A stretch of 64,000 bases of DNA, from assembly GCA_963749155.1 (NCBI GenBank), contig CAVVLO010000002.1:768001-832000 (forward strand), read 5' to 3'. The notes below the pieces were generated by a model. It saw only the letters and a program-made list of their open reading frames with translations. It had not been told where the DNA came from and made no database searches. Positions within the stretch are counted from its first letter, which is position 1, and every line of letters begins with the position of its first letter. Below, in pieces: positions 33,097-49,260 of the stretch. Both the position numbers and the translations under genes were made by a program. The DNA is from an uncultured Armatimonadia bacterium (GTDB lineage: Bacteria; Armatimonadota; Zipacnadia; CAVVLO01).

Positions 33097-33176
33097 CAGC
33101 CCAACCTCCGGTCATCGTGCAAATCAAAGACGCACCGGGGTTCGCTTCGAGAAGGCCGCTCCCTGCCTGCGGCAGG

Positions 33177-34182: not shown

Positions 34183-35267
34183 CAGAGGCTCTCCTCCACA
34201 CCGCGATAATTGTAATGGGCCGCGCAAGCGCCTTCACTCGACACCATACAAGGGCCGACGGGCGAGTCGGGCGTGCAGCCGGTTGCGAACAAACCGCATT
34301 CGGCAGGCTCGATGAGCCCTTTCAACACGTCGCCGCACCGGCAGCCGGCTGGCTCGGATTCGATTTCGGGCAGGAAAGGCGCCACCAGTTCGGTCGCATC
34401 ATGCTCCGAGAACTCCTCCCTCAGCCTGTAGCCGCTGCCTGGCAAGGTGCCCAGGCCTCTCCAGCGAGCCTCGCAAGGCTCGAAGGCTTCTCCAAGCAGC
34501 GCCTGAGCAGCGGGGTTGCCCTCTTCTCGCACGATACGCGGGTATTCGTTGTAGATGCCGGCCTTGCCGTCCACGGTAGCCTTTACGGCTTTGTGTACGC
34601 CCCTCACGAGGTCCAGGGGCTCGAAGCCAGTAATGACGCCGACTTTGCCATATTCCTGCGCCAGGAACCTGTATGGTGGAACTCCAATCAGGGCGCTTAC
34701 ATGACCTGGCAGGAGGAACCCATCCAGAGCGAGTGCCGGGTCAGCGACCAGCAACTCCAGCGCCGGCGGGATGAGCTTGTGCACGCACCAGATGCGGAAG
34801 TTGGCCACCTTCCGGCGCGCCGCCTCGCGCAGGGCGATCACGGTGCCGGGTGCGGTAGTCTCAAAACCGACTCCGAGGAAGACGACAATTGCCTTGGGTG
34901 AGTGCTCTGCGAGTTCGACCGCTTCGAGGGGTGAGTAGACAGGCTTCACCCTTGCCCCGCGCGCCGAGGCCTCGGCAAGGCTCCCCTGGCTGCCAGGCAC
35001 CCGCAACATATCGCCATAAGTGGCGAGTATCACATCAGGGCGCGCCTGGCCCAGCGCGATGAAGGCGTCCAGTTCGCCCTGGGCGGTCACACAGACAGGA
35101 CAGCCTGGCCCCGAGGTGAGTCTGATTTGGCGAGGAAGCAACTGCTTGAGGCCCATCTCGGCGATGGCGGTCGTGTGCGTGCCACAAACCTCCATCAGGC
35201 GGAGGGCGGGTGGGTCAAGCGCCCTGATCTCGCCAAGCAGCTTTTCGATTTCGGCGTGGTCGGTCAT
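34182..35267 (-). CDS. hypD: hydrogenase maturation protein HypD
   Basis: 'MEVCGTHT', 'GPGCPVCVT', 'GFETTAP', 'PGHVS', 'GPCMVSSEGACAA'. Confidence 0.97.
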   Translation of the reverse strand: MTDHAEIEKLLGEIRALDPPALRLMEVCGTHTTAIAEMGLKQLLPRQIRLTSGPGCPVCVTAQGELDAFIALGQARPDVILATYGDMLRVPGSQGSLAEASARGARVKPVYSPLEAVELAEHSPKAIVVFLGVGFETTAPGTVIALREAARRKVANFRIWCVHKLIPPALELLVADPALALDGFLLPGHVSALIGVPPYRFLAQEYGKVGVITGFEPLDLVRGVHKAVKATVDGKAGIYNEYPRIVREEGNPAAQALLGEAFEPCEARWRGLGTLPGSGYRLREEFSEHDATELVAPFLPEIESEPAGCRCGDVLKGLIEPAECGLFATGCTPDSPVGPCMVSSEGACAAHYNYRGVEESL

Positions 35268-35480
35268 CTAGAGTCCCGCTCTCTGGAGCCATTCCTCTCG
35301 CGAGGAGGCGTCCTCTGACTCGACTTTACTGATGGCGATGCCCGCGTGCACAAGCACGAAGTCGCCTACGACCACCGTCGGCAGCAGGTCCATCCGCGCT
35401 TTGCGCCGCACGCCCTGGCGCTCACAGAGGGCTTCCACGCCTTCAAGTTCGACCACTTTCATCGGTATGCCCAGACACAT
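35268..35480 (-). CDS. hypC: hydrogenase chaperone HypC
   Basis: 'MCLGIP', 'VGDFVLVHAG.AI'. Confidence 0.96.
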   Translation of the reverse strand: MCLGIPMKVVELEGVEALCERQGVRRKARMDLLPTVVVGDFVLVHAGIAISKVESEDASSREEWLQRAGL

Positions 35481-35481
35481 A

Positions 35482-37737
35482 CTAGCTCAGTCCTGCAAGG
35501 TAAGCCTGGCCCAGTGACAGTCCCCCGTCACTAGCAGGCACCTGTTGATTTGTAAAAACGTATAACTCGGCGGCTTCCAGCCTTGCTGGCACCTTTTCAA
35601 CCAGCGCCACATTCTGAAAACTGCCTCCGGACAGCGCGACCTGGGCAAGGCCCAGCGCCTTTGAAGCCCGCAACACCTGCTGGGTCAAGGCTTCCACCAC
35701 TGTCGTGTGGAAATCAGCGGCAAGCTCTCCTACCGGTTTACCCGCCAGCCTGCCTTCCACCAGTCTGGCAAGGGTTGGGCGGAAATCCAGCAGCCACAGC
35801 CCCTCGCGCTCAGCCAGGTCGAAAGGCAGCGGTGCGCCCACGGCCCCGCCAGTTGCCGCTTCCAGTTCCATAGCGGGCTGGCCTTCGTATTCGGCCTGCC
35901 GGCAGACGCCAAGCAACGCTGAGACCGTATCGAACACCCGGCCCAGGCTGGAGGAGAGTGGCGCGTTAACGCCTAGTTCCAGTTGCTTGTCGATAGCCGC
36001 AAGCTGAGCCTCGCCGAGCCCAAGTTTAAGCGCTTCCGCCTTAGCGTACGCACCTTGCCCGAAGAGCGCAAGCAAGGCTGCGAAAGCCAGTCGCGCCGGT
36101 TCCTTCACCGCCGCGTCCCCGCCCGGCAGCGGTGTTGGCACAAGGCTCCCAACGCGCTGGTAATCGGTGCCCTCACACACCAGCAGCTCCGAGCCCCAAA
36201 AAGTGCCATCTGGCCCATAACCAGTGCCATCCGCAGCCAGCCCAAGCACTGGCCCTTCCAGGCCGTGTTCGGCAACTACACTCGCAATATGCGCGTGATG
36301 ATGCTGGAAGGCTACGCGCTCGATGCCTTCCAGTTCCTCCGCGTACCGGGTGGAGAGATAATCAGGATGCATATCGTATCCGACAATCTCGGGCTTCACG
36401 CGAAGCAGTCGTTCCAGGTGAGCCACTGCGCGACCGAAATACTCGTAGGTCTTGAGGTCGGTCAGGTCGCCGATATGCTGCGACATCACCGCCTGGCCGG
36501 CGTAGGTCAGGCAGAAAGTGTTCTTCCATTCGGCGCCGACCCCAAGCGCAGGTCGCACTGCCCGGGCGAGCTTGATGCCGCGTGGCACATAGCCTCGACT
36601 GCGCCGGATGAGCTGCGTCCCGCGCGCGGTCACTCGGACAACCGAATCGTCGCACGGCACCTCGATGGGGCGGTTATGGTGCAGAAAATGATCGGCAAAT
36701 TGCCCAAGCCTCGCCCGAGCTTCCTCGTTGTCGGAGACGATAGGCTCCTCCGACAGGTTGCCACTGGTCATCACCAGCGTCTCGGGTGACTGCTCGAACA
36801 GGAGCTTATGCAGCGGGGTGTAAGGCAGCATCAGCCCCACCTGACGCTGACCAGGAGCAACAGAACGCGCCAGAGTCGATTCTGGCAGCCACTCGAGCAA
36901 CACAACAGGCCGCTCTACACTGGTGAGCAGCGCCTCCTCTGACTCGGACAGCCGGGCGTGACGGCGGATGACTTCGAGGTCGCGCGCCATCACGGCAAAG
37001 GGCTTGAAATCGCGTCGCTTGCGTTGACGCAGCTTCGCAACCGCCTCGGCGTTTTCCGCATCGCAGGCCAGGTGATATCCCCCAAGCCCCTTGATGGCAA
37101 CCACTTCGCCCCGATGGAGAGCGTCGGCCGCGAGGCGCAAGGCCTCCTCATCAGGCAGGGCCTGGTCATCGAAGGTGAGGTGAGGGCCACAAACCGGACA
37201 GGCGTTGGGCTGGGCGTGGAAGCGGCGGTCTGCTGGCTCCTCATACTCGCGCTGGCACTCCGGGCACATCACGAAACCTGCCATTGTCGTCAGCGGCCTG
37301 TCATACGGGACTTCCTCGATGATGGTGAACCTCGGCCCGCAGTTGGTGCAGTTGGTAAAGGGATAGCCATAGCGCCTGTCAGCCGGGTCGAGCACCTCGC
37401 ACGCGCAGTCGGCGCAGGTGGCGATATCGGGCGGGATGAAGGCGAGCTGAGCCGCTTCGAAGCGACTTTCGATTATTCGGAAATCACTTTCTGCCTCTAC
37501 GAGTGGCAGAATCTCAGTGGTTACCTCATCCAGATGCGCCAGCGGGGGCAGCTCTTCACGAAGGGCGCGCTGGAAGTCCAGGAGTGGTGTTGCTTCTCCC
37601 TGAGCTTCGATGACAACGCCCCTGGAGGTGTTCTGCACCCACCCGGTTAGCTTCCGCTCGGTCGCAAGGCGATACACAAAGGGGCGAAAACCGACCCCTT
37701 GCACCAGTCCCTGCGCCAGCAATCTAACTCGACTCAT
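35482..37737 (-). CDS. hypF: carbamoyltransferase HypF
   Basis: 'GLVQGVGFRPFVY', Zn fingers 'CADC...CTNCGPR', 'RRFHAQPNACPVCGP', 'QHHHAH', 'DGTGYG', 'DGGLSLGQ'. Confidence 0.97.
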   Translation of the reverse strand: MSRVRLLAQGLVQGVGFRPFVYRLATERKLTGWVQNTSRGVVIEAQGEATPLLDFQRALREELPPLAHLDEVTTEILPLVEAESDFRIIESRFEAAQLAFIPPDIATCADCACEVLDPADRRYGYPFTNCTNCGPRFTIIEEVPYDRPLTTMAGFVMCPECQREYEEPADRRFHAQPNACPVCGPHLTFDDQALPDEEALRLAADALHRGEVVAIKGLGGYHLACDAENAEAVAKLRQRKRRDFKPFAVMARDLEVIRRHARLSESEEALLTSVERPVVLLEWLPESTLARSVAPGQRQVGLMLPYTPLHKLLFEQSPETLVMTSGNLSEEPIVSDNEEARARLGQFADHFLHHNRPIEVPCDDSVVRVTARGTQLIRRSRGYVPRGIKLARAVRPALGVGAEWKNTFCLTYAGQAVMSQHIGDLTDLKTYEYFGRAVAHLERLLRVKPEIVGYDMHPDYLSTRYAEELEGIERVAFQHHHAHIASVVAEHGLEGPVLGLAADGTGYGPDGTFWGSELLVCEGTDYQRVGSLVPTPLPGGDAAVKEPARLAFAALLALFGQGAYAKAEALKLGLGEAQLAAIDKQLELGVNAPLSSSLGRVFDTVSALLGVCRQAEYEGQPAMELEAATGGAVGAPLPFDLAEREGLWLLDFRPTLARLVEGRLAGKPVGELAADFHTTVVEALTQQVLRASKALGLAQVALSGGSFQNVALVEKVPARLEAAELYVFTNQQVPASDGGLSLGQAYLAGLS

Positions 37738-38410
37738 CACCGCTCTGTCCTTCTTCCGCGAGCAAAGCGAATACCCGGTCAGCGAGCCAGTCGGCAAGCT
37801 CAGGCAAGCCTTCACCCGTCCGGCGGAAATCCGGAATATCGCCGCGTTCGGGTTCAAGCGCTGCCAGATCGCCGAAATACTCCTCTTCGTTGAAGCCAAA
37901 AGGCTCGGCCAGATCCCATTTGTTTACCACGACGGCATCCGCCTCGCGAAACATCTGCGGATATTTACGCGGCTTGTCCTCGCCTTCGGGCACACTGCCA
38001 ACCACGAGGCGCAGACGCTCGCCAATCCAGATGGCAGCAGGACATACCAGGTTGCCGACATTCTCGGTGAGCACCAGGTTGAAAGGCTGGTCGGCGAGTT
38101 TCTTGAGCGCAGCCACTACGAGGTGCGGCTCCAGGTGGCAGGCGCCGCCAGTCGTTATCTGGACGATAGGCTTCTCAAGGCCGGCCAGTTTTTCAGCGTC
38201 GGTCGTCGTAGCGATGTCGCCTTCAAGGATTGCAATCTGGAAACGCGACTCGAGCAAAGGCACCAGATTGAGCAGCAGAGTAGTCTTGCCCGCCCCGGGA
38301 GAACTCATCAGGTTGACCATCACGGCCCCGCGCGCGGCAAGCCAGTCGGCCACTGTCCTGGCATCGGCCTGGTTCTTCTCCATTATGTTGCGGACGACTT
38401 TGATAAGCAT
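37724..38410 (-). CDS. hypB: Ni-insertion GTPase HypB
   Basis: 'SSPGAGKTTL', 'EGD', 'TGGACHL', 'ENVGNLVCPA', 'EGEDKP.KYP', 'NKWDL'; the tail looks locally frame-garbled. Confidence 0.95.
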   Translation of the reverse strand: MLIKVVRNIMEKNQADARTVADWLAARGAVMVNLMSSPGAGKTTLLLNLVPLLESRFQIAILEGDIATTTDAEKLAGLEKPIVQITTGGACHLEPHLVVAALKKLADQPFNLVLTENVGNLVCPAAIWIGERLRLVVGSVPEGEDKPRKYPQMFREADAVVVNKWDLAEPFGFNEEEYFGDLAALEPERGDIPDFRRTGEGLPELADWLADRVFALLAEEGQSGDESS

Positions 38411-38742
38411 CAGTCTACCTCCAGCTCGACCAACTCGAGGCCCTTGCCAGCCGTTAGCTCAAGCTCCGTCCCCCCACAGACTTCACAGGCGAAAACGCCA
38501 GCTTTGGGCTGGAACTCGGCTCCACATTTGGCGCAGCGACCGGCCAGCTTTTCCAGGACGAACTCCAGACTTGCGCCCTCGGCGAGCGTGCCCTCGGCTA
38601 CCATCGGAAAATAATGCTCGAGGTAATCGGGGCAGAGACCAGCCCATTCGCCGATTTTGACCTTTATTCGGCGGATGCGTCGGCCAGCGCCCTCTTCGAG
38701 CGCGATTCTTACCAGTTCCTGCGTGGCTGGAAATTCATGCAT
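38410..38742 (-). CDS. hypA: Ni metallochaperone HypA
   Basis: 'MHE' N-terminus, CAKC/CEVC Zn site, 'GKGLELVELEVD'. Confidence 0.93.
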   Translation of the reverse strand: MHEFPATQELVRIALEEGAGRRIRRIKVKIGEWAGLCPDYLEHYFPMVAEGTLAEGASLEFVLEKLAGRCAKCGAEFQPKAGVFACEVCGGTELELTAGKGLELVELEVD

Positions 38743-38751
38743 ATTATAATG

Positions 38752-38788
38752 AAAACAGGGAACCGGCCTGATAAGTGCCGGTTCCCTG
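38752..38788 (-). terminator. terminator-like hairpin between the hydrogenase structural genes and hypA
   Basis: CAGGGAACCGGC-N9-GCCGGTTCCCTG-TTTT (12-bp perfect stem). Confidence 0.7.
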
Positions 38789-38811
38789 CGCAAAAGGTTG
38801 AAAAACCGAGC

Positions 38812-39351
38812 CTAGACGGTCTCGACCTTCTCGTAGATAACCATCCCGTCCTCGTCCTGCTTGAGGTCATCCAGGTGGTAGCGCGGAATCGCCAGCTCGA
38901 GTTGCTTGTATTTGATGGGCGCGGTCTGCTTGTCTACCAGGCCAAGCGCGACGGCGACGCCCCAGACGATGGCTTCTGGCCTCGGCGGGCAGCCGGGGAT
39001 GTAGAAATTCACCGGGATGACCTTGTCCAGCGCGCCGATGACATTGTAGGTATCGTTCCAGATACCGCCACCGCAGGCGCAAGAGCCAATGGCAAAGACC
39101 AACTTGGGCTCGGCCATAGCATCGTAAGCGCGCTTGAGCGACTCGGCAGTCGCGCGCGAGGCAGGCCCCTGGCACAGCATCGCATCAGCGTGGCGAGGCG
39201 AGCCTACCAGCTTGATGCCAAACCGTTCGACGTCGTAGAAAGGCGTAAGCACGTTTACGACTTCGATATCACACCCGTTGCAGCCACCACTATTGGCATG
39301 GTACACCCAGATGGAACGGGCGAAAGCTTTCTTGCAGAGTTCCTTAAGCAT
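38812..39351 (-). CDS. hycG: group 4 [NiFe]-hydrogenase small subunit (HycG/NuoB-like)
   Basis: 'GGCNGCDIE', 'GSPRHAD', 'GSCACGGG', 'YIPGCPPRPEAI'. Confidence 0.92.
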   Translation of the reverse strand: MLKELCKKAFARSIWVYHANSGGCNGCDIEVVNVLTPFYDVERFGIKLVGSPRHADAMLCQGPASRATAESLKRAYDAMAEPKLVFAIGSCACGGGIWNDTYNVIGALDKVIPVNFYIPGCPPRPEAIVWGVAVALGLVDKQTAPIKYKQLELAIPRYHLDDLKQDEDGMVIYEKVETV

Positions 39352-39371
39352 CTTTCTCTCCCCAGTCCTGC

Positions 39372-39896
39372 CTAGTCAAGCTCGAGTTTGATATCGTCGG
39401 CTGCCTCATCACCCTCGAGGTAGCTCTCGGAGTCATACACGAACAACTCGTTTTCCAGGTCGTCGAAGCGGAAACCCTTCAGCTTGAGCTGCTCGAGCGG
39501 GCTTGGCTCCTTGAAACAGCGCCCACAGCGCTGGCAGGTGCCCATAAAGATCTCGAGCTCCTGGCTGATGTCCCGGATATCATTTGTGGCATTCTGAAAC
39601 TCGTGGCTCATCGTGATGGCGCCCTCGGGACACACGTCAGCACAGCGGCCGCAATAGGTGCAGCGGCGACCGATGTACTTTATGATCCGCTTTTCCTGGC
39701 AAAGATCCAATACCAGGATCTCGCGCGCAGGGCAGTTGTTGGCGCAACCCGCGCACCCGATGCACTTGGAGCCATCGAAGATAGGCCGTCCGCGGAACCG
39801 TTCGGGCACTGGTTCGGCCTTGGCCGGATACGGCAAGGTGACCTTGCCGGCCTTCAGGCAGAAAACTGCTTCTTTGAGCTTGCTAGTAAGCGACAT
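39372..39896 (-). CDS. hycF: 2x[4Fe-4S] subunit (HycF/NuoI-like)
   Basis: 'RFRGRP', 'CIGCAGCANNCP', 'CTYCGRCADVCP', extra 'CQRCG'. Confidence 0.88.
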   Translation of the reverse strand: MSLTSKLKEAVFCLKAGKVTLPYPAKAEPVPERFRGRPIFDGSKCIGCAGCANNCPAREILVLDLCQEKRIIKYIGRRCTYCGRCADVCPEGAITMSHEFQNATNDIRDISQELEIFMGTCQRCGRCFKEPSPLEQLKLKGFRFDDLENELFVYDSESYLEGDEAADDIKLELD

Positions 39897-39913
39897 TCGA
39901 TATCACTCCGCGA

Positions 39914-40849
39914 TTAGTAGCCGAGTACGGCCAGGATGAGGGCGATAAGCGCCACAATAAACAGGAACGCGTAGTACTTGATCGCCTGGTCAATCCTGTA
40001 GCGCGCATGGGTCGCGGCTATCAGCGTTACGAGCAAAGTCAGGCCGAAGATCTTCGCCAAAACGACGAGGGTCCCCAGCGGGAAAGCCAATGAATTGCCC
40101 CAGGGAAGGAACAGGGCCACTACGATAGCACTGTAAAGGAACAACTTGGCCATCTGCGCATACTTGAAGAGGGCCAGCTTCGGACCCGAATACTCGATCA
40201 GGGTGCCTTCCATAAGCTCGGTCTCGGCTTCGGCGATGTCGAAGGGCATACGCCCAACGAAGGCCTGGAAAGCGAAAAGCATTACCACAGCCATCAAGAT
40301 GCCAGCATAAGATATGCTCTCTGCCCCTGCCGCATATACAGCCCCGCCACCCAGCACATCATCCAGCCTGAGGCTGCCTGCGTGCACGGCGCCGATAATG
40401 ACCGAGATTGCCAGCAGTGGCTCCAGGGTCATCATTGCCATCATCTCGCGGCTCATACCTACCAGTGAGTAGGTGGAGCCAGCCGCCAGTGCCGCAAGCA
40501 GGGTCGAAATCCCGCACAGCGTAAGCACATAGATAAGCAGGATGCTGTCGGCCGACAGCCCAAGTGGGGCCGCGGCGCCAATTGGCACGAGCAGCGCCAC
40601 CGTCAGGATGGCTGCAAGCGACAGATACGAGGCGAACCGCTGCATAAACGGTGACTCGCCGCACTCTAGATCTTCTTTCCCCAGCAGCTTCAGCAGGTCG
40701 TAATATGGCTGGGTAATCGGCGGCCCTTGACGAGACTGGACCCGCGCCGTGACCTTGCGCAGCACGCCCTCAAACAGCGGAGCCAGCAGCAGCACAAGCG
40801 CAATATTGACTACGCCGTAACTAAGCAGTTCAAGCACGTTAGCTTCCAT
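39914..40849 (-). CDS. hycD: membrane subunit (HycD/NuoH-like)
   Basis: 'RKVTARVQSRQGPP..QPYYDLLKLL', 'RMPFDIAEAETELMEG..IEYSG'. Confidence 0.9.
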   Translation of the reverse strand: MEANVLELLSYGVVNIALVLLLAPLFEGVLRKVTARVQSRQGPPITQPYYDLLKLLGKEDLECGESPFMQRFASYLSLAAILTVALLVPIGAAAPLGLSADSILLIYVLTLCGISTLLAALAAGSTYSLVGMSREMMAMMTLEPLLAISVIIGAVHAGSLRLDDVLGGGAVYAAGAESISYAGILMAVVMLFAFQAFVGRMPFDIAEAETELMEGTLIEYSGPKLALFKYAQMAKLFLYSAIVVALFLPWGNSLAFPLGTLVVLAKIFGLTLLVTLIAATHARYRIDQAIKYYAFLFIVALIALILAVLGY

Positions 40850-40882
40850 TCGTGAGCACTCCCAACGTATGTCCGTTGCTGG

Positions 40883-42559
40883 CTACTGGGCCGATTCGCG
40901 CACCAGCGCGTACAGCTCTTCCTGCGTGAAAATCCGCTCTTCACCACTGCGGATATCGACAACCTCAAGCCGGTCCGTGCAAGAGAAGCACGGGTCGATA
41001 CTGCCCAGAGAGATGGTCATGTCAGCGATCATCTGATCTTTTATCATCCCGGGCACGCCCTGCAGGTTCTGGTAGGTCGGGGCACGGACACGCCAGCGGC
41101 GCGGCCGGTTATCGTCACCGGTGATTACAAAGTGGTGGGCTTCGCCCCGGGGGGCTTCAACGGCGGACATCCCAAGTCGCCCAGCGGGCAGCTCGGAATC
41201 GATGTCCAGAGTAATCGGGCCATCGGGCATAAGAGCCAGCGACTGGCGGATAATCTTGATGGATTCCAGCACCTCGAGGGCGCGGACAATGATACGGCCC
41301 CAGACATCGGCCGAATCCTGAGTTATTACCTGGAAGTCCACCTTGTCATACGCCGCATACGGGTGATCTACACGATCGTCGATGGCTACGCCAGCCGCGC
41401 GCGCCACGGGGCCAAGCAGGCCCAGCGCTTTGCAGTCGGCAGGGGTAGCCACGCCAACGCCCTTGGTGCGGCGCTGGATGTTACGATCCTTGGCGATCAT
41501 CCCGACGACAGGCGTCCACTCTTTCTCGAGCTTGTCCATCAGCTCAAGGAGCTCGGTCTTCAGTTCGGGCGTGATGTCGAAGCGCACGCCGCCGATTACG
41601 CACAGGGCGTAAGTCTTGCGGTTGCCGCTTATCTTCTCGGAAATCCACATCACAGGCTCGCGGATCCGGAAGCTCTGCATAAACAGAGTGTCGAAGCCCA
41701 GGATATGGCACGCGAGGCCTGCCCAAAGCAGATGGCTGTGAAGACGCTCGATCTCGAGCATAATGGTCCGGATGAACTCGGCCCTTGGTGGCGCCTGGAT
41801 TGCCGCCGCCTGTTCGACAGCCTGGGCATATGCCACATTGTGGACGCAGCCGCAGATGCCACAGATGCGCTCTGCCAGCATCGGGATCTCGTTGTAGGTC
41901 AGGACCGAATCAGCGAGCTTCTCCACTCCGCGATGGACCATAAAGCCGCGGTATTCGCAGCCCTTCACGACCTCGCCCTCTACGAACAGGCGGAAGTGGC
42001 TCGGTTCGTCCAGGGTCGGGTGGAAAGGTCCGAACGGGACGACGACAGTGCCTTCTGGCGGATTATCGAAGTCGTAGGTCTTCGACGCGTCATAGGTATC
42101 CGGCACATTGTCCCAGCGCAAATCATGGCGCAGCGGATGAACATCCTCTGGCCAGCCATCGGGCAGCACCAGGCGCTTGGGGTTCGGATGCCCCTCGGGC
42201 ACGATACCGACCAGATCGCGGAACTCGCGCTCCGACCAGTTGGCGGCGGGAATAATATCCGCGATGCTGTCAATGACAGGATTCTCGCCATCGAGCAGCG
42301 TCAGGACGCTGATGAGGACATGGTCCTTGTCACAGGCGAAATCATGGGCGACCATAAACTTGCCCTGGGTCTCGCGCTCATCACAGCCGATGCCGACGCA
42401 ATAGCGAGCGTCCAGGTCCACGAAAAGGAACTGGCACACCTCGCGCACGGCTTTGGGCTCGATGTAGACGAACAAGCGGCCGTCGGCGGGGATGTCGGCC
42501 CGCTGGATCTTCAGGCCGAACCTCTCCTCAAGCTGCTTTTGGATGTCACGTGCTGTCAT
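40883..42559 (-). CDS. hycE: group 4 [NiFe]-hydrogenase large subunit (HycE-like NuoC-NuoD fusion) with cleavable C-terminal tail
   Basis: L1 'ERICGICG', L2 'DPCFSCTDR' followed by a 28-aa extension; 'GPFHPTLDEP', 'HRGVEK', 'EAPRGE'. Confidence 0.95.
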   Translation of the reverse strand: MTARDIQKQLEERFGLKIQRADIPADGRLFVYIEPKAVREVCQFLFVDLDARYCVGIGCDERETQGKFMVAHDFACDKDHVLISVLTLLDGENPVIDSIADIIPAANWSEREFRDLVGIVPEGHPNPKRLVLPDGWPEDVHPLRHDLRWDNVPDTYDASKTYDFDNPPEGTVVVPFGPFHPTLDEPSHFRLFVEGEVVKGCEYRGFMVHRGVEKLADSVLTYNEIPMLAERICGICGCVHNVAYAQAVEQAAAIQAPPRAEFIRTIMLEIERLHSHLLWAGLACHILGFDTLFMQSFRIREPVMWISEKISGNRKTYALCVIGGVRFDITPELKTELLELMDKLEKEWTPVVGMIAKDRNIQRRTKGVGVATPADCKALGLLGPVARAAGVAIDDRVDHPYAAYDKVDFQVITQDSADVWGRIIVRALEVLESIKIIRQSLALMPDGPITLDIDSELPAGRLGMSAVEAPRGEAHHFVITGDDNRPRRWRVRAPTYQNLQGVPGMIKDQMIADMTISLGSIDPCFSCTDRLEVVDIRSGEERIFTQEELYALVRESAQ

Positions 42560-42597
42560 AAGAGAGCACCTCTTCAGGCGCGTTGCGCCGCTAATAA

Positions 42598-44553
42598 CTA
42601 CTTGCTTTCGGGCTTCTCGTCCGACTTGTCGGCTGGCCCGTGAGCCTGGTGCTTGGGAGCGGCACCGACCCAGGTGAAATACTTCTTGAACTCGCCGTAA
42701 AGGTTGTGCGCGTTGTAGCGATACTCATCAGCATGGGTTACATAACCGCATAGCCAGGGAGTAGTAACGCGCCGTACCGCGCCCCCAACACGCGAGATAC
42801 CATAAACCAGCAGCATCAGGACCAGCACCACACCCGCCAGTACAAGAGGCGTGAAGGCTGCCATCTGCGGAAGGCCAACCCCCAGCAAGGTGTCGCCGGT
42901 GGGTACAGAGCTGGAAGTTATGAGCCTCTCGGCCAGGCCCTGGCGGCTTGCATTCATCGCGGCAAGGAACAGGCCGTAAGCCGCAGCGGGAGCGATACCG
43001 AGCAGCACGCAAAGCGCCCCAAGCAGTGACTGAGGTACCAGCATCGTCCAGTCGCCTTCCAGTTGGCCCTTCTCCTCGGCTTTGGCGTTTACCAGGTCAC
43101 TGCGACGCGACAGGAAAGTCACGCCGAAGAACTTCATAAACGAGGCCAGGGTCAGTGCGCTGGTAAGGATGGCGAACAGGCCGCATACCGCCAGATACTT
43201 GGCATCAGACGAGCCCAGGATGGTAGAGGCATAGATGGTCCACTTGCTGGCGAACCCATTGAAAAGCGGCACGCCGGCGATGCTGAAGGAAGCGATCAGC
43301 GTGAGCAACGCGGTCGCGGGCATCAGCTTGATCAGACCACCCAGCTTGTTCATATCCTGGGTATCGGTCGCATACATTACCGAGCCAGCGTTCAGGAAGA
43401 GCAGGCCCTTGAAGCACGCGTGGTTCACAGTGTGGAAAAGCGCGCCCAGCAGGCCGAAGCTGGCCAGTGTTTGCACTATCAGGTTGCTTTCGCCAGGCGC
43501 ATAAAGGGCGATTGCAGAGCCGATACCGAGCAGGATATAGCCAATCTGACCGATGCTGTGGAAGGCCAGCAGTCGCTTGGTTTGCTCCTGCTTGAGCGCC
43601 TGCATCGTGCCCACGAACAGAGTAATTGTACCGAGCACGGCGATAAGCATACCCCACTGGGCAGCGGGGAAGCTGTCAACTGCATCCTTCGGGATCATCC
43701 AAAGGAAGGTCCGCAGGATGCCGTAGATGCCAGTCTTGATCATTACGCCCGAAAGCAGCGCGCTAACAGGCGCGGGAGCCGCGGGGTGAGCGTCAGGCAG
43801 CCACCACTGGCCGAAGGGCCACATACCCGCCTTGATGCCGAAACCAACAAGCATCAGCATCAGTGCGCCCAGTACGATGCCTCCGCCCTGATTTTGGAGC
43901 ATCCAGCCCAGGTTGTGGGCGATGGCTTCGAAATCAAACTTGCCGATTGTCTCCGCGCCGAGGGTAATCTTGCTGCCAGTATCGCCCAGCATATAAGCCC
44001 CGGCCATAACCAGCAGCACCGAGAGTTCCATAAAGAACAGATATTTGTTGGCGGCGGCGACGTTGGACTTGACTTTGTTCTCGTACCGGATGAGCGCATA
44101 ACTGGTCAGCGTCATCAGTTGCCAGAAAAGGCAGAAATACAGCATCAGGTCAGTGGTTGTGACTATCCCGTACATACCCGCGATGAAGAGCAGGAAGTAA
44201 GGATAATACCGGCCGGCGCCATATTCCTTATAATGTTCCATATACTTGATCGAGAAGAGCGCCGCCATCACCGCGACAACCGCGATAATGCCGATAAACA
44301 GACCGCTCAGCCCGTCTATATACAGGCGCAGTGCCGTCCCGTTGACCAGTCCGTCAAAGAAGGTGCGAGCCTCACCCGCCTGTCCGCTGACCAGTACTCG
44401 GCCGACGCCGACAAGCGCCAGGAAGCTCGAGGCGGCAGTCGCCAGAAAAGCGAGCCAGCCCGCAATGCGCTTGCTACCAGAAACGAGCAAGGTAAGCACC
44501 GCGCCAGCCACCAGTATCCCAAAGGCATACAGCATGCAATCAATAGCTGTCAT
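42598..44553 (-). CDS. hycC: antiporter-like membrane subunit (HycC/HyfB, NuoL/M family)
   Basis: Many TM helices; 'GFGIKAG..P..WLPDAHPAAPAPVSALLSGVMIKTG.YG', 'KRLLAFHS', 'NHACFKGLLFL', 'GVPLFNGFASKW'. Confidence 0.9.
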   Translation of the reverse strand: MTAIDCMLYAFGILVAGAVLTLLVSGSKRIAGWLAFLATAASSFLALVGVGRVLVSGQAGEARTFFDGLVNGTALRLYIDGLSGLFIGIIAVVAVMAALFSIKYMEHYKEYGAGRYYPYFLLFIAGMYGIVTTTDLMLYFCLFWQLMTLTSYALIRYENKVKSNVAAANKYLFFMELSVLLVMAGAYMLGDTGSKITLGAETIGKFDFEAIAHNLGWMLQNQGGGIVLGALMLMLVGFGIKAGMWPFGQWWLPDAHPAAPAPVSALLSGVMIKTGIYGILRTFLWMIPKDAVDSFPAAQWGMLIAVLGTITLFVGTMQALKQEQTKRLLAFHSIGQIGYILLGIGSAIALYAPGESNLIVQTLASFGLLGALFHTVNHACFKGLLFLNAGSVMYATDTQDMNKLGGLIKLMPATALLTLIASFSIAGVPLFNGFASKWTIYASTILGSSDAKYLAVCGLFAILTSALTLASFMKFFGVTFLSRRSDLVNAKAEEKGQLEGDWTMLVPQSLLGALCVLLGIAPAAAYGLFLAAMNASRQGLAERLITSSSVPTGDTLLGVGLPQMAAFTPLVLAGVVLVLMLLVYGISRVGGAVRRVTTPWLCGYVTHADEYRYNAHNLYGEFKKYFTWVGAAPKHQAHGPADKSDEKPESK

Positions 44554-44577
44554 CGTAGCGTGCACCCCAGACTTCCG

Positions 44578-45060
44578 TTACGCCGTTTGGCTAAGAATCT
44601 TGTCCAGTAACTCCGCCAGAAGGCGGACGGTCTCTTCGATCACGGGGCTAAGCCCCGGTCCCTTCAAAGAGGCTGGCTGGGCTCCCAGTAAACTGACTTT
44701 CGGCCCCTCATCCGCCTCGATAAGCCTGGCCAGTGTCCCCAGCGACAGTTTATGGGTCGAAAACTGGGGAAACCGGCTCACCAGTTGCTCGGCGGAGAGT
44801 ACCACCACTGCCCCTGGCGCGGCTCCAACTTCAACAGCATCAAGCAGTATTACCGCATCCCAGCCGCCGGCTCGTACCTGGCCCGTATGGGCCTCTGGCG
44901 TCGTACCTGCCAGCACCACTTCGGCAAGGCCGCGCTGCTCGAGCGCTTCTCCCAGGCTCGGTCCGAACCCATCGTCACCGTGGTCCGGATTCCCGATTGC
45001 AATAAAGCAGACTCGCCCGGCCAGCCTGCTCCTGAGCTCGACATCGAGTGCCTGGCTCAA
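44578..45060 (-). CDS. hycI: hydrogenase maturation endopeptidase (HycI-like)
   Basis: 'IGNPDHGDDGFG', 'GTTPE', 'ILLDAV', 'STHKLSL'. Confidence 0.88.
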   Translation of the reverse strand: MSQALDVELRSRLAGRVCFIAIGNPDHGDDGFGPSLGEALEQRGLAEVVLAGTTPEAHTGQVRAGGWDAVILLDAVEVGAAPGAVVVLSAEQLVSRFPQFSTHKLSLGTLARLIEADEGPKVSLLGAQPASLKGPGLSPVIEETVRLLAELLDKILSQTA

Positions 45061-45911
45061 ATCTCCTCGCCGAGTTTCTGGATCTGTTCAAGAGTGTAAA
45101 CAGGTCCATCTACGCAGACATATGAGACGCCGATACAGCAATGGCCACACTTGCCGATACCGCACTTCATATAGCGCTCGAGCGTCGAGACGATGTGCTT
45201 GTCCTCGAAGCCCATCTCTTTCAGGTCCTTGAGCACGAAGCGGAACATAATGGGCGGGCCGCAGACGAAGGCCGTAGTGTTGTCGACCGGCACATCCACG
45301 TTGTCCAGCTTGAACAGCGAACCGACGACGCCTACGTTGCCGCTCCAGCCCTCATCGCCCCGGTCAACGGTCAGCAAGCACTCCAGCTTGCCTTCCTGCT
45401 GCCAGCGCGCCAGGTCCTCGGTATACATTAAGTCTTTGGGCGTACGCGCCCCGTAGAAGACCTGCACCTTGTCGAACTTGTCGCGGTTGTCCAGCGCGTA
45501 CACGATGCAAGAGCGAAGCGGGATAAGCCCGATACCACCGGCCACGAACACCAGGTTGCGGCCATAGTACTCGCTCATATCGAAGCCGTTGCCGTAAGGG
45601 CCGCGCACCGCGAACTTGTCGCCAGGCTTTAGCTGATGCAGCGCGTGAGAAACCGCCCCCACGTCTCGCACCGTGAAGAAGAGCTTCTCCTCGGAGGGAC
45701 TCGGCGGTAGCGAGGCCGGAAATTCCCCTGCGCCAAACACGTTTACCTGGGCGAACTGCCCGGGCTTGAAATTGCTGTGGAAATATTCCTGCTCTGCCGG
45801 ATCCTCATAATGCCAGTAGAAGGTCTTTACCTCTGCGATATCGTCCTGCACGGCATCCAGGATTGCTAGCTTGGGCAGATAGGCATTCTCGTCACGTTGC
45901 GGCTGGCTCAT
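45057..45911 (-). CDS. FAD/NAD(P)-binding [2Fe-2S] oxidoreductase (AsrB / sulfhydrogenase gamma HydG-like)
   Basis: 'FKPGQF', 'RGPYGNGF', 'VAGGIGLIPLRS', 'CGPPIM', 'LERYMKCGIGKCGHC...C.DGPV'. Confidence 0.9.
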   Translation of the reverse strand: MSQPQRDENAYLPKLAILDAVQDDIAEVKTFYWHYEDPAEQEYFHSNFKPGQFAQVNVFGAGEFPASLPPSPSEEKLFFTVRDVGAVSHALHQLKPGDKFAVRGPYGNGFDMSEYYGRNLVFVAGGIGLIPLRSCIVYALDNRDKFDKVQVFYGARTPKDLMYTEDLARWQQEGKLECLLTVDRGDEGWSGNVGVVGSLFKLDNVDVPVDNTTAFVCGPPIMFRFVLKDLKEMGFEDKHIVSTLERYMKCGIGKCGHCCIGVSYVCVDGPVYTLEQIQKLGEEI

Positions 45912-46980
45912 TTTCGACGCTCCCCGCGGTTTCTCTCCGAATGATCTCGACTACATTGGGCATACCTATATCGCCATGACAGACGGCGATGCAGCGCCCG
46001 CAGCCCACGCACGCTACCGACAGCTCTCTTTGCAGGAAATAATGGGCCAGCTTCCTGAAGAAACGCCGGTTGCGCCTGTCATGCACGGCCTTGCGCGGGT
46101 TGTGGCCACCGGCCATCCGCGTAAAACCTGACAGCGCGCACGCATCCCAGATGCGCACCCGCTCTACCTTGCCCTCGCCCACGTTGCGATCGCTGACAGT
46201 GAAGCAGGTGCAGGTCGGGCAGACATAGCTGCAGCCGCCGCACTCGAGGCACCGATTGCCGATCTCTTCCCAGGTATCTTCGCTGATGCCGCCCTTGGTG
46301 ATATAGCGAGTGGCAGCCGAATACCAGCTTGTCGGCACCTTGAAATGCTTGCGCGCCTCTTCGAGAAGGTCATGGCGCTTTTTCACGTGTTCGGGGGTCG
46401 CTTTCGTGAACATGGGATTCTCGAAAAGCTTCTCGCCCTTCTCGCTCCCTGCGACGACCAGCACCTCTTCGCCCAAATCCATAAGTTGCAGGTCGAAGTG
46501 GTCGCGAGCAGCCGGCCCGGTGTCGGCGCAAACGCAGAAACAGTCTCTGTCGATGTCTACGCCAACTTCGGTGCAGACCACATTGACCAGGAAAAGGTTC
46601 TCCCTGAGCTTCTTGTAGTACAAATCGTTGAAATCCCGCCCCAGGTAGAAACGATCAAGGTGATAGATACCCGCCACATCGCATGACCGGATGCCGAATA
46701 TGGCGCGCTTCGGCTCGTCGTAGGTGGGGGTAATCTCCACGTTGCCCTCGGCCATACGCATTTCCATCAGCCGCTGGATATGCGGCAGGACGTAGCGCTT
46801 GGCGGGATAATAAGGATTACGCACGTGCAGCTTCAGGTCGGCCTTGTTGGCTTCGGTGACCGGCTCGTAAGCGCTGTCGCGACCGCGACCCTCGAAGGGG
46901 GCGACGACCTCGTAGCCCTGCTCCTCGAGCAGGTCAACGATCTTGAACACGTCGCTCTTGGCTACGATTCTAGCGCGCAT
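45892..46980 (-). CDS. [4Fe-4S] protein (AsrA / sulfhydrogenase beta HydB-like)
   Basis: 'GIRSCD', 'CFC', 'CLECGGCSYVCPTCTCF', 'R.WDAC', 'CVGCGRCIAVC'. Confidence 0.9.
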   Translation of the reverse strand: MRARIVAKSDVFKIVDLLEEQGYEVVAPFEGRGRDSAYEPVTEANKADLKLHVRNPYYPAKRYVLPHIQRLMEMRMAEGNVEITPTYDEPKRAIFGIRSCDVAGIYHLDRFYLGRDFNDLYYKKLRENLFLVNVVCTEVGVDIDRDCFCVCADTGPAARDHFDLQLMDLGEEVLVVAGSEKGEKLFENPMFTKATPEHVKKRHDLLEEARKHFKVPTSWYSAATRYITKGGISEDTWEEIGNRCLECGGCSYVCPTCTCFTVSDRNVGEGKVERVRIWDACALSGFTRMAGGHNPRKAVHDRRNRRFFRKLAHYFLQRELSVACVGCGRCIAVCHGDIGMPNVVEIIRRETAGSVENEPAAT

Positions 46981-46982
46981 CG

Positions 46983-49016
46983 TCAAACCATCTCCAGTTT
47001 CACGCAGACGGGGCCGCGCAGCGTTGTCTCGTTGCAGGGCTTGCCCCCGAGCAACTGCTGCGTGACTTCGCCCAGGAAATACGGCACGAAGATCATCCCG
47101 CGTTTGACCTCACTGGTAAGACGCACCGCCACCTGGGCCGAACCGTCGGCCGAGGTCAACTGTACCTTCTGCCCATCGCGTACTTTGAGGTCGCGAGCAT
47201 CGTCCGGATTAAGCTCCACGAAGCCCTCGGGATAATCCAGCAAGAGCATCCGGTATTCGCGTTTCAAGGTTTCGCTGTGCAAAATGAGCGCGTTGCGATG
47301 CCAGTAGTAAAGCGAATGACCGAACATTAGCGAGAAGGGGAAATCTTCGGTCGCGCAGGGTATAGCTCCTGGCCGCGAGACCGCAGAAAACTTGAAAAGC
47401 TTGCCCTGAATGCCATCCTCATACAAGAAGCGCGTGCCATTGGGCTTGCTCTTTGTAACAGGCCACTGCCTGCCATAATCGGAGACCAGGTTATCGTAAT
47501 TCGCCGCTTCATAGGCAGGCACAGCCTGGCCTATCTCGTTCATAATGGCCGCCGAGTTTGCATACGTCCAGTTTGCGCCGAGTTTGTTTGCGACTTCTTC
47601 GATCTGCTTCCAGGCAGTGATGGTACCCTCCAGAGGATCCTTAACCTGGGTGGCAAGCTGGATGCGCCGCTCGGTGCTGGTGAAAGTTACGGTTTCTTCG
47701 CCGAAGGCGTTCAGCGGGAGGATGACATCCGCAAGTTCGGCGGTTTCGGTCATAAAGAGCTGCTGCATTACGATGAAGTCGAGTTTGGCGAGGGCTGCTT
47801 TGGCATTGCAGTAGACGCCTGTGATGACTGCGTCATGGCGGTCCAGCCACAGTGCTTTCAGCTTGTCGCCAGCCAGCACGGTAAGCATCGCGCGCGCTGT
47901 TGCGCCTTCTGTCTCGGGCAGTTTGCAGCCCCAGAGGCTTTCCAGCCTGGAACGATCTTCGGCCGACTCGACCTTGCCATAACCAGGCAGCAGGTTGGGC
48001 AGCATACCCATATCGCAGATACCCTGCAGGTTGTTTTGCTCTGTCAGTGACATAACCCCGGCGCCTTCTTTGCCGATATTTCCAGTCAGCAAAGCCAGGT
48101 TGGCGATTGACTCTACGGAGCTGGCTCCGCGCGCCTCGACGCCGGTCGAATAGAGGATCATCGCTTTGCCAGCCGAGGCGAAAGCTACGGCGGCCTGCTC
48201 GATGAGCTGGGCGTCCACGCCGCACTGCTCTGCGGCATAAAGCACATCATAGGCATTGATGTTTTCGCGGAAGGCGTCCCAGTCCTGACAATGGGCCTTG
48301 ATGAAGTCCAGGTCCATAAGCCCGCGGTCTATGATGACCTTGGCCATTGCGCCATAGAGCAGCGTGTCCGAGCCGGGGCGCAGTTGCAGGAAGTAGTCGG
48401 CATGCTCTGCGATGCGATGCTTGCGCGGGTCAATGACGATAACCTTGGCCCCCGCGAGTCTGGCTCTGATTACCCAGCCCCCGATTGTGGGAAGCTGCTT
48501 GGCCAGGTCTACACCGTTGATGAGGATGACGTCGGTCTTGGCGATATCGGCGATAGAGTTCGTCGAGGCGGGTATCCCGAGTTGATCCTGCAGCACTTCG
48601 ATGCTGTTATGCCTGTGGATGCCAGTCCCATGGTCGACGTTATTGGTGCCGATTATGGTCCTGCCCAGCTTCTGCAGCAGATAGGTCTCCTCATTGGAGC
48701 AGCGACCAGAGTTCAGGAAGCCGATGGCGTCGGGCCCATACTGGCTCTTGATCTGGCTCAGGCGCTCGGCAATGTAGCTGTAAGCTTCATCCCAGCTAAC
48801 CTGCTCGAACTTGCCTTCCCGCTTGATAAGCGGGTACCTGAGTCGATCTTGAGCGCTGGCTACTTCGTGCACGTTCCAGCCGCGGACACAAATCCTGCCC
48901 TCGTTGGCGGGGTGCGACATACTGGGATAGGCTCCGGTTACGTCGTTGCCCTGGGTCTCGAGGTAGATGCCGCAGCCCACACCACAGAACGTGCAGGTGG
49001 TTAACTTGTGGGCCAT
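46983..49016 (-). CDS. FdhF-like molybdopterin-oxidoreductase-family protein lacking catalytic residues
   Basis: N-term 'CTFCGVGC...ICVRG' [4Fe-4S]; 'RCSNEETY..QK..R...GTNNVD', 'QNNLQG..DMG', 'TERRIQ'. The Mo-ligand segment reads 'DHGTGIHRHNS' (no Cys, no TGA). Confidence 0.88.
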   Translation of the reverse strand: MAHKLTTCTFCGVGCGIYLETQGNDVTGAYPSMSHPANEGRICVRGWNVHEVASAQDRLRYPLIKREGKFEQVSWDEAYSYIAERLSQIKSQYGPDAIGFLNSGRCSNEETYLLQKLGRTIIGTNNVDHGTGIHRHNSIEVLQDQLGIPASTNSIADIAKTDVILINGVDLAKQLPTIGGWVIRARLAGAKVIVIDPRKHRIAEHADYFLQLRPGSDTLLYGAMAKVIIDRGLMDLDFIKAHCQDWDAFRENINAYDVLYAAEQCGVDAQLIEQAAVAFASAGKAMILYSTGVEARGASSVESIANLALLTGNIGKEGAGVMSLTEQNNLQGICDMGMLPNLLPGYGKVESAEDRSRLESLWGCKLPETEGATARAMLTVLAGDKLKALWLDRHDAVITGVYCNAKAALAKLDFIVMQQLFMTETAELADVILPLNAFGEETVTFTSTERRIQLATQVKDPLEGTITAWKQIEEVANKLGANWTYANSAAIMNEIGQAVPAYEAANYDNLVSDYGRQWPVTKSKPNGTRFLYEDGIQGKLFKFSAVSRPGAIPCATEDFPFSLMFGHSLYYWHRNALILHSETLKREYRMLLLDYPEGFVELNPDDARDLKVRDGQKVQLTSADGSAQVAVRLTSEVKRGMIFVPYFLGEVTQQLLGGKPCNETTLRGPVCVKLEMV

Positions 49017-49110
49017 ATCAGACGCCCCTTTCGAAGGCACTTGTATGCCTTTCGGTGGAATCGCGTCGGGTGGGCGTGGAAGACCGCGCTTACGCTAACC
49101 CGAACGGCAA

Positions 49111-49138
49111 ATTATACACGCCTCACAACCGGTGTCAA
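49111..49138 (-). promoter_or_regulatory. consensus sigma70 promoter of the hydrogenase operon
   Basis: TTGACA-N16-TATAAT on the minus strand, about 95 nt upstream of the FdhF-like ATG. Confidence 0.75.
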
Positions 49139-49260
49139 CCGATTTCGAGGCGTTGGGAGAAGGTTTCGCCGGGCCTTTTCCATCCCCTGCCCACCCCAGG
49201 CAGGGAGAATCACCCAAAGAGCGAACTACTTTTTTATCTATCACTTCAGGATGAGGCGCG

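Follow-up and report, generated by a model that had tools for sequence, protein, structure and literature searches.

The window analysed here is a stretch of 64,000 nucleotides from an uncultured Armatimonadia bacterium (assembly GCA_963749155.1, contig CAVVLO010000002.1, positions 768,001 to 832,000 of the forward strand). Its minus strand carries, between 38812 and 49040, an operon of nine closely packed genes whose product is most likely an eight-subunit membrane [NiFe]-hydrogenase of the formate hydrogenlyase (FHL) type with NAD(P)H, not formate, as its soluble electron partner. Read along the minus strand, the genes encode an FdhA-like subunit, a subunit resembling AsrA and the beta subunit of sulfhydrogenase I (SHI-beta), a subunit resembling AsrB and SHI-gamma, and then HycI, HycC, HycE, HycD, HycF, and HycG; the genes hypA, hypB, hypF, hypC, hypD, and hypE come next on the same strand (Table 1). 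An earlier reading of the letters by themselves (the sequence-only reading) had proposed these gene calls, their order, and a minus-strand operon, and the open reading frames (ORFs) and the Pfam and NCBIfam matches reproduced all of them at the same coordinates. The consensus promoter that it had placed before the operon was also recovered (TTGACA, 16 nt, TATAAT) as the one 12/12 match in the 16.6 kb scanned. The ORF of the FdhA-like subunit comprises 685 amino acids (aa) from a GTG codon, but its true start is likely an ATG at 49016, where an identical database protein of 677 aa (P0001) begins.

No intergenic gap within the operon exceeds 38 bp, so there is no space for an additional HycB- or HyfE-like gene hidden between the others. 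Searches with E. coli HycA, HycB, and HycH (tblastn) gave no match in the operon. The single match to HycB in the genome lay on another contig (C1:907611, E 2e-10), with none in the window's contig region, and among the 80 related loci described below there was one HycB match, located outside the operon. The absence of a HycB-type adaptor, which had been pointed out from the sequence, is thus borne out by both the searches and the spacing.

Table 1. Features of the hydrogenase operon and the adjoining hyp genes (positions in the window)
Feature	Coordinates	Strand	Basis
Sigma-70-type promoter, TTGACA-16 nt-TATAAT	49111..49138	-	12/12; sole perfect match in 32800-49400
FdhA-like subunit, Mo/W-bisPGD oxidoreductase fold	46983..49040	-	Pfam Molybdopterin, Molybdop_Fe4S4, Molydop_binding
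AsrA/HydB (SHI-beta)-like poly-Fe-S subunit, 364 aa	45892..46986	-	Pfam Fer4_22
AsrB/HydG (SHI-gamma)-like FAD/NAD(P)/2Fe-2S subunit, 284 aa	45057..45911	-	Pfam NAD_binding_1, DHODB_Fe-S_bind
HycI-type maturation endopeptidase	44578..45060	-	Pfam HycI; TIGR00072 88 bits, above cut-off
HycC/HyfB-like antiporter-like membrane subunit	42598..44565	-	Pfam Proton_antipo_M, Proton_antipo_N
HycE-type [NiFe] large subunit, NuoC-like fusion	40883..42559	-	Pfam Complex1_30kDa, Complex1_49kDa, NiFeSe_Hases
HycD (NuoH-like) membrane subunit	39914..40849	-	Pfam NADHdh, E 1e-59
HycF (NuoI-like), two 4Fe-4S motifs	39372..39896	-	NF009053, formate hydrogenlyase Fe-S subunit
HycG (NuoB-like) small subunit	38812..39351	-	Pfam Oxidored_q6; NF005012 above cut-off
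hypA, hypB, hypF, hypC, hypD, hypE	33124..38793	-	HypB, HypF, HypD, HypE: Pfam and NCBIfam equivalogs above cut-off
HypC	35268-35480	-	N-terminus MCLGIP

The hydrogenase itself is predicted from its sequence to be functional. HycE contains all four Ni-Fe cysteines, which makes its Ni-Fe site an all-cysteine one, and it ends in a 28-aa C-terminal tail for HycI; the tails in its family are mostly 26 to 32 aa long. The ligand motif RICGICG was present in 77 of 78 family members, DPCFSCTDR in all 78, and the cluster motifs of HycG in 61 of 68. The closest solved relative of HycE is E. coli HycE (7z0s_E, 427 bits; MbhL scored 226 bits), to which it is 40% identical by tblastn. The operon holds the only hydrogenase of the host genome, in which neither a second NiFe large subunit nor an [FeFe] domain was found; with the complex-I-like HycE as the sole Ni-Fe large subunit, the alpha and delta subunits of group 3 hydrogenases are absent. 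An assignment of HycE to HydDB group 4f (Ehf) was dropped, since all ligands are kept and E. coli HycE is nearest, and published descriptions set it apart from that group. In the accessible text of two preprints, group 4f enzymes are described as lacking the Ni-Fe ligands (bioRxiv 328856) and, in Methylocystis, as having a different motif set (bioRxiv 2025.08.29.672306).

HycF is the sole ferredoxin-type subunit of the operon. Besides two ferredoxin-type 4Fe-4S motifs, it has an invariant CxxCxxC (C121, C124, and C127) and a nearly invariant C66, as judged from 46 family members. E. coli HycF has CxxC at the corresponding site and further cysteines elsewhere, so the extra motif is not shared in that form. 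These additional cysteines could hold a possible third cluster facing the SHI-beta-like subunit. HycC is likewise the only Proton_antipo_M protein of the operon, and its membrane lysines are highly conserved (transmembrane segment [TM] 7 in 69 of 72 family members, TM8 and TM12 in all 72), in the numbering of E. coli NuoM. In one related locus, two antiporter-like genes, both with Proton_antipo_M (809 and 641 aa), lie between HycI and HycE (L017, 5622-9984), and two such genes instead of one were also seen in about eight others (L018, L019, L028, L039, L042, L045, L048, and L058).

The operon begins with a clear homologue of FdhF (E 6e-101 to 1aa6_A), for which NCBI uses the name "molybdopterin-dependent oxidoreductase." Its score against TIGR01591 was 593.7 bits, below the cut-off of 666; canonical FdhA proteins of relatives in the same class scored 798 to 919 bits. 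Alignment to formate dehydrogenases of the PDB and to E. coli FdhF revealed replacements at all four hallmark positions, namely, U140 by H, H141 by R, R333 by T, and K44 by R. The loss is common to the whole clade, for which 183 sequences were compared (64 from the window and the related loci and 119 database proteins, not de-duplicated). Position 140 was Y in 160 sequences, H in 12, F in 10, and S in 1, but never Cys; position 141 was C in 96, R in 43, S in 25, G in 9, T in 5, A in 4, and V in 1; position 333 was T in 136, A in 28, S in 15, and five others, with Arg in none; and position 44 was R in all 183. Canonical FdhA proteins were represented by E. coli FdhF and 16 sequences from the class of the host, 17 in all. 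Among the 113 columns invariant in that set, 62 were kept in the clade, 27 were lost, including the motifs N-x-x-E-x-H-P and Y-x-M-G-E, and 24 were intermediate. The four cysteines of the FS0 4Fe-4S cluster were retained, and the clade has invariant residues of its own, with R44, E334, and D176 present in 183 of 183 sequences and R402 in 178. The mean column identity was 0.74, and the former active-site stretch was the most conserved part (0.88).

The supply of cofactor points in the same direction as the residues. The host genome (4.17 Mb in 7 contigs, 100% complete by markers) gave no match to MoaC or MoeA_N in profile searches, the control searches for which were each positive in 11 of 14 known genomes, and E. 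coli MoaA, MoaB, MoaC, MoaD, MoaE, and MoeA found nothing in it at E <= 1e-3 (tblastn). On these searches the host is predicted to be unable to make molybdenum cofactor, and the FdhA-like gene encodes its only protein of the molybdopterin-oxidoreductase family (PF00384). Fifty other carriers of the operon were searched, namely, the genomes with the longest stretches among the 80 loci; 15 of them lacked MoaC, and 14 of those 15 also lacked MoeA_N. Joint loss of MoaC and MoeA in carrier genomes of 3.6 to 7.2 Mb is unlikely to be assembly noise. Cys141 was about equally common in carriers without MoaC (9/15) and with it (17/34), and it is therefore not a shifted molybdenum ligand. With no cofactor synthesis and a single molybdopterin-family gene in the host, the FdhA-like subunit is read as a cofactor-free Fe-S or scaffold relic, like NuoG; as it is conserved over its whole length, it would be a maintained subunit and not a decaying gene. 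The suggestion in the sequence-only reading that the formate dehydrogenase no longer works thus held on two counts, the clade-wide loss of catalytic residues and the lack of molybdenum cofactor synthesis in the host. Dehalococcoides OmeA was considered as a precedent for a cofactor-free Fdh-like protein and was not used, as bis-molybdopterin guanine dinucleotide is predicted in OmeA in the accessible part of the source (PMC10772276).

The two genes that follow encode homologues of the beta and gamma subunits of Pyrococcus furiosus sulfhydrogenase I. The SHI-beta-like subunit matched PDB 9nez_B (sulfhydrogenase 1 beta) with 132 bits and has 16 cysteines that are invariant in the family alignment; the NCBIfam models AsrA, ShyB, and HydB all matched it below their cut-offs. 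The SHI-gamma-like subunit matched 9nez_C (sulfhydrogenase 1 gamma) with 195 bits, and its family has GGxGxxP and a C-terminal 2Fe-2S motif, CX4CX2CXnC, in 70 of 70 members each and the flavin motif GExPxS in 68 of 70. The scores of the two subunits are far under the ShyB/HydB and ShyC/HydG equivalog cut-offs of NCBIfam. Judged by the conserved motifs, the flavin module is probably functional. The NAD(P)H module proposed in the sequence-only reading is the best-supported interpretation, given this homology and the strict synteny with the hydrogenase.

A fold test of HycF with the SHI-beta-like subunit gave a score of 0.45, and the best of three controls gave 0.00; contact agreement among the runs was at least 38%, and the partner pLDDT was at least 78. 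Of 157 solved complexes, 116 reached that mark, as did 2 of 215 mismatched pairs; those reaching it with a score of 0.60 or under were just 18 of the 157 solved complexes and both passing mismatches. The predicted contact between HycF and the SHI-beta-like subunit thus has weak fold support.

The host contains a second AsrA/AsrB-like pair outside the window (G000:C2:1240247-1257173; locus L122, 2247-19173, minus strand). There, a nuo cluster of the 11-subunit type, in which NuoA, B, C, D, H, I, J, L, M, and N were seen but not NuoE, F, or G, is followed on the same strand by HdrC-like, HdrB-like (CCG), and HdrA-like genes, MvhD, an FrhB/FdhB-like protein, and the AsrA/AsrB-like pair. This gene set is Flox-Hdr-like and stands directly behind the complex I genes, so that the host employs the AsrA/AsrB pair as a movable NAD(P)H module twice.

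The arrangement of the operon is far from chance and is that of a genuine conserved unit. A scan with HycE across 185,579 species, one genome per species, confirmed 231 relatives, of which the best 80 (66 to 72% identical) were kept; all 80 loci are from metagenome-assembled genomes (MAGs). The nine genes were colinear in 57 of the 80 loci, and the AsrB-like gene stood directly upstream of HycI or HycC in 71. In each of the nine loci without a visible AsrB-like gene, the contig end falls inside HycC, HycI, or HycE; the module is therefore present in every informative locus (71/71). The survey of gene order that had been proposed along with the sequence-only reading thus places the AsrAB-like pair beside the hydrogenase in all informative loci.

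According to the record titles, the loci come from at least eight phylum-level groups, and the carriers include Verrucomicrobiota, Acidobacteriota, Methylomirabilota, Nitrospirota, Armatimonadota, Fibrobacteria, one Baltobacteraceae MAG, and one Chlamydiota MAG. Within a sample of the host's own phylum, an orthologue of the AsrA-like protein (E <= 1e-100) was found in only 4 of 401 genomes, the host counted, and no AsrA-like orthologue of the operon type was found in relatives from the host's class. The best AsrA-like matches in 40 of these same-class relatives were rejected as operon members, being merely 28 to 39% identical and representing other paralogues. Such a broad but sparse distribution is expected of a horizontally moving unit.

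Several further observations concern the occurrence of the operon. In an Armatimonadota MAG, another and only distantly related AsrA/AsrB-like pair lies downstream of HycG (L080, 7188-9157; 29% and 35% identity with the pair of the window), in addition to an orthologous AsrB-like fragment at the contig start. Sampled words from the operon (window 38400-49200) were found in DNA runs of metagenomes from sediment, soil, caves, freshwater, wastewater, sludge, and digesters; the share per run was half of the sampled words or less, except for 0.80 in one sediment run. Contigs from two RNA libraries of one study (X19 and X20) covered 24 and 20 of the 30 operon bins at 90 to 99% identity. The libraries are labelled ice metagenome and the contigs come from a relative; DNA carry-over was uncontrolled, and hence they are no proof of transcription. 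Two other RNA libraries (X21 and X22) gave merely 4 and 3 short pieces on the operon.

With regard to the host's metabolism, ferredoxin is reduced by a four-subunit 2-oxoacid oxidoreductase, and the genome gave no match to RnfD/NqrB. Complex1_51K matched once in the genome (C2:702943) and not in the operon, and an RnfC-like match at C2:702898 was below the cut-off. No PFL equivalog was found in the genome. The PFL model gave 13 matches genome-wide, at about nine places and all far below the cut-off, to glycyl-radical-enzyme-like ORFs, one of them in the window (about 3949-5514, minus strand). These genes suggest a strictly anaerobic host with many glycyl radical enzymes.

The operon combines parts of several known systems. 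With E. coli FHL-1 (HycBCDEFG plus FdhF; group 4a; PDB 7Z0S/7Z0T) it shares HycC, HycD, HycE, HycF, HycG, HycI, the cleavable tail, the hyp genes, and an FdhF-family subunit. It differs from FHL-1 in having no HycB, HycA, or HycH, in an FdhF homologue without U140, H141, R333, and K44, in the added flavin/NAD(P) module, and in the extra Cys motif of HycF. The soluble sulfhydrogenase I of P. furiosus (group 3b, PDB 9NEZ) and the AsrA/AsrB part of anaerobic sulfite reductase have homologous beta and gamma subunits, but their catalytic partners are a group 3 alpha-delta dimer and the siroheme protein AsrC, respectively, whereas here the partner is a membrane-bound group 4 hydrogenase. The likeness to complex I extends from the ancestry of the membrane and Q modules to a cofactor-free, Fdh-like Fe-S scaffold domain and an NAD(P)H-oxidizing flavoprotein at the tip. 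Where complex I has NuoF with FMN, however, the operon has an FAD-containing flavin module of the FNR/PyrK type. Its Fdh-like protein is encoded separately and at full length, with the FS0 cluster only, and in place of quinone the acceptor is H+ at a Ni-Fe site, the cysteines of which HycE keeps.

The closest published counterpart is in the in silico study of Takano et al. 2026 (Front Microbiol, PMC13582414). According to its accessible text, the Cys/Sec is missing from roughly half the Fdh subunits of a large subclade within group 4b, and the clusters concerned carry SHI-beta and SHI-gamma homologues; AlphaFold models with a three-way Fe-S branch led to the proposal of bifurcation or confurcation with an unidentified third substrate. 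Those group 4b [NiFe]/[NiFeSe] clusters, as far as they are described there, and the window operon have in common an Fdh-like subunit without the Mo-ligating Cys/Sec, the SHI-beta and SHI-gamma homologues, an FHL-like membrane hydrogenase, a NuoC-fused large subunit, hyp genes, and horizontal spread at the phylum level. The cluster called typical in that text includes a HyfE-like protein together with several subunits each of the antiporter-like and the ferredoxin kind, and the example modelled there comprises 12 proteins. The operon in the window lacks a HyfE-like gene and a separate ferredoxin; it has an all-cysteine Ni-Fe site and a single antiporter-like subunit, of which some relatives have two. 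The accessible part of the table has no Verrucomicrobiota rows, and none of six contig accessions of our related loci was found there. From composition, we infer that the window operon and these clusters are one family; the single antiporter-like subunit and the lack of HyfE-like and extra ferredoxin subunits fit a reduced form of the same kind. The host's lack of cofactor synthesis speaks against a catalytic Mo site as the third branch.

A literature search found no biochemical study of this operon type, and only Takano et al. describe the composition. The statement in the sequence-only reading that no complex of this composition has been characterized therefore stands, but the composition is not unreported, being in print in the accessible text of Takano et al. 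2026 (PMC13582414). New here are the cofactor-synthesis argument, the clade-wide residue counts, and the caveat on ion coupling set out below. Metagenome papers label such clusters FHL, an example in the accessible text being the "fdhF, hyf operon" of peat Acidobacteria (Hausmann et al. 2018, PMC6018796).

Built on a membrane core of the FHL type, the complex is probably an NAD(P)H:H+ oxidoreductase that works reversibly. Electrons from NAD(P)H would enter at the FAD of the SHI-gamma/AsrB-like subunit, pass to its 2Fe-2S cluster, and then reach the 4Fe-4S clusters of the SHI-beta/AsrA-like subunit, which would fill the place of HycB. From there they would run through HycF and the cluster of HycG to HycE and its Ni-Fe site; the flow may also be reversed. 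The FdhA-like subunit would carry no molybdenum cofactor and persist as a scaffold that bears Fe-S; as a fossil formate dehydrogenase, it would have its counterpart in the NuoG domain of complex I. HycD and HycC would link the redox reaction to the membrane. NAD(P)H-dependent H2 formation is endergonic under standard conditions (-320 versus -414 mV), so that low H2 or an ion-motive force is needed. Where H2 is higher, the complex may thus draw on ion-motive force to transfer electrons from NAD(P)H to protons; alternatively, it may make a small gain from the transfer of electrons from H2 to NAD(P)+ or from NAD(P)H to H2 at very low H2. The gene content, the ligands, the conservation, the loss of formate dehydrogenase residues, and the absence of cofactor synthesis genes are observed, and from them a physical assembly, NAD(P)H as the substrate, the direction of electron flow, and ion coupling are inferred.

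Several points weigh against this reading. Antiporter-like subunits have a conserved Glu in TM5 (E144 of E. coli NuoM, with Glu likewise in NuoL, NuoN, and the HycC of E. coli); in 69 of 72 members of the HycC family here it is Gln (FW-Q-LMTL), which weakens the case for ion pumping. Of the ion-coupled hybrid proposed in the sequence-only reading, the NAD(P)H module has accordingly stood, and the ion coupling was overstated, although it is still plausible from the sequence. Because the step from NAD(P)H to H2 is endergonic, the direction and the coupling are tentative. The conservation of the FdhA-like subunit over its whole length exceeds what a mere scaffold would seem to need. The predicted assembly has synteny in its favour, but the fold score is weak. 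Completeness values are not given for the 50 other carrier genomes. Finally, in a host with a ferredoxin-reducing oxidoreductase and no RnfD/NqrB, ferredoxin may also have to reach the hydrogenase.

Other explanations make different use of the same evidence. An ordinary formate hydrogenlyase, converting formate to CO2 and H2, would account for the FdhF homology of the first gene and for the match of HycE, C, D, F, G, and I to FHL-1, but it is hardly credible with all four FdhF hallmark residues replaced in 183 of 183 clade sequences, a TIGR01591 score under the cut-off, no molybdenum cofactor made by the host, no HycB, and no PFL equivalog. In group 4 enzymes of the Ech/Mbh type, ferredoxin is accepted directly by the subunit equivalent to HycF, and the hydrogenase might likewise be an Ech-like, ferredoxin-dependent core. 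The FdhA-like, SHI-beta-like, and SHI-gamma-like trio would then be a soluble oxidoreductase of its own, linked to NAD(P)H and sharing no more than a transcript with that core. The weak result of the fold test and the host's second AsrA/AsrB-like pair, which shows the pair to be a movable module, speak for such a separation. We nevertheless regard it as unlikely: all 71 informative loci, which span many phyla, have the trio upstream of the hydrogenase, gene overlaps and gaps of a few bases point to tight coupling, HycI is located between the trio and the hydrogenase genes, HycE is closer to FHL-type HycE than to MbhL (427 versus 226 bits), and the extra invariant CxxCxxC of HycF could serve a docked partner.

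A three-way bifurcating or confurcating complex would join the trio and the hydrogenase differently, with Fe-S branches to the Ni-Fe site, to the flavin of the SHI-gamma-like subunit, and to the Fdh-like subunit with a third substrate or with ferredoxin docked at the 4Fe-4S cluster of that subunit; one example would be confurcation of NAD(P)H and reduced ferredoxin to H2. Such branching was seen in the AlphaFold models of Takano et al. 2026, in the part of that paper accessible (PMC13582414). The purifying selection over the whole length of the FdhA-like subunit and its clade-specific invariant residues (R44, E334, D176, and R402) would be accounted for, as would a host that makes reduced ferredoxin and has no RnfD/NqrB and no other hydrogenase. 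However, the host and 14 of the 50 other carriers lack both MoaC and MoeA, which excludes a Mo/W-pterin active site there, and the residue adjoining the former Sec position is freely variable (C, R, S, G, T, A, or V). The Pfam and NCBIfam matches of the operon include no flavin protein of the HdrA, NuoF, or NfnB type. FAD of the PyrK/AsrB type is not known as a bifurcating flavin. A membrane-coupled enzyme, moreover, does not need bifurcation to bridge the potential gap, and the three-way complex is given a low probability.

In a more far-reaching form, to which we attach a similarly small chance, the complex would be an independent re-invention of the complex I design, in which the strongly conserved FdhA-like subunit, with its 4Fe-4S cluster, is a ferredoxin port and NAD(P)H and reduced ferredoxin are confurcated onto protons at the membrane. 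If this were true, an FHL-type hydrogenase would have turned its own formate dehydrogenase into a fossil, cofactor-free, NuoG-like subunit and acquired an unrelated FAD/NAD(P)H module, and the complex would be the sole H2 outlet of fermenters without [FeFe]-hydrogenase and Rnf.

Two further genes flank the operon and the hyp genes. An ORF of 741 aa (49261-51486, plus strand), divergent from the promoter region of the operon, had no Pfam or NCBIfam match, and a protein of 1141 aa with a CBM-like domain of polysaccharide lyase family 4 is encoded directly downstream of hypE (29671-33096, minus strand).

Operons of this kind are routinely labelled FHL and are counted as formate-driven H2 producers in metagenome-based community models of peat, soil, groundwater, and digesters. 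If the enzyme is linked to NAD(P)H, as the preferred reading holds, the predicted electron flow shifts from formate to pyridine nucleotides as the source of H2. A membrane-bound and possibly ion-coupled NAD(P)H hydrogenase would also show how NAD(P)H electrons can reach H2 without bifurcation, and a formate dehydrogenase retained without its cofactor would parallel, in living organisms, the way in which NuoG of complex I arose.

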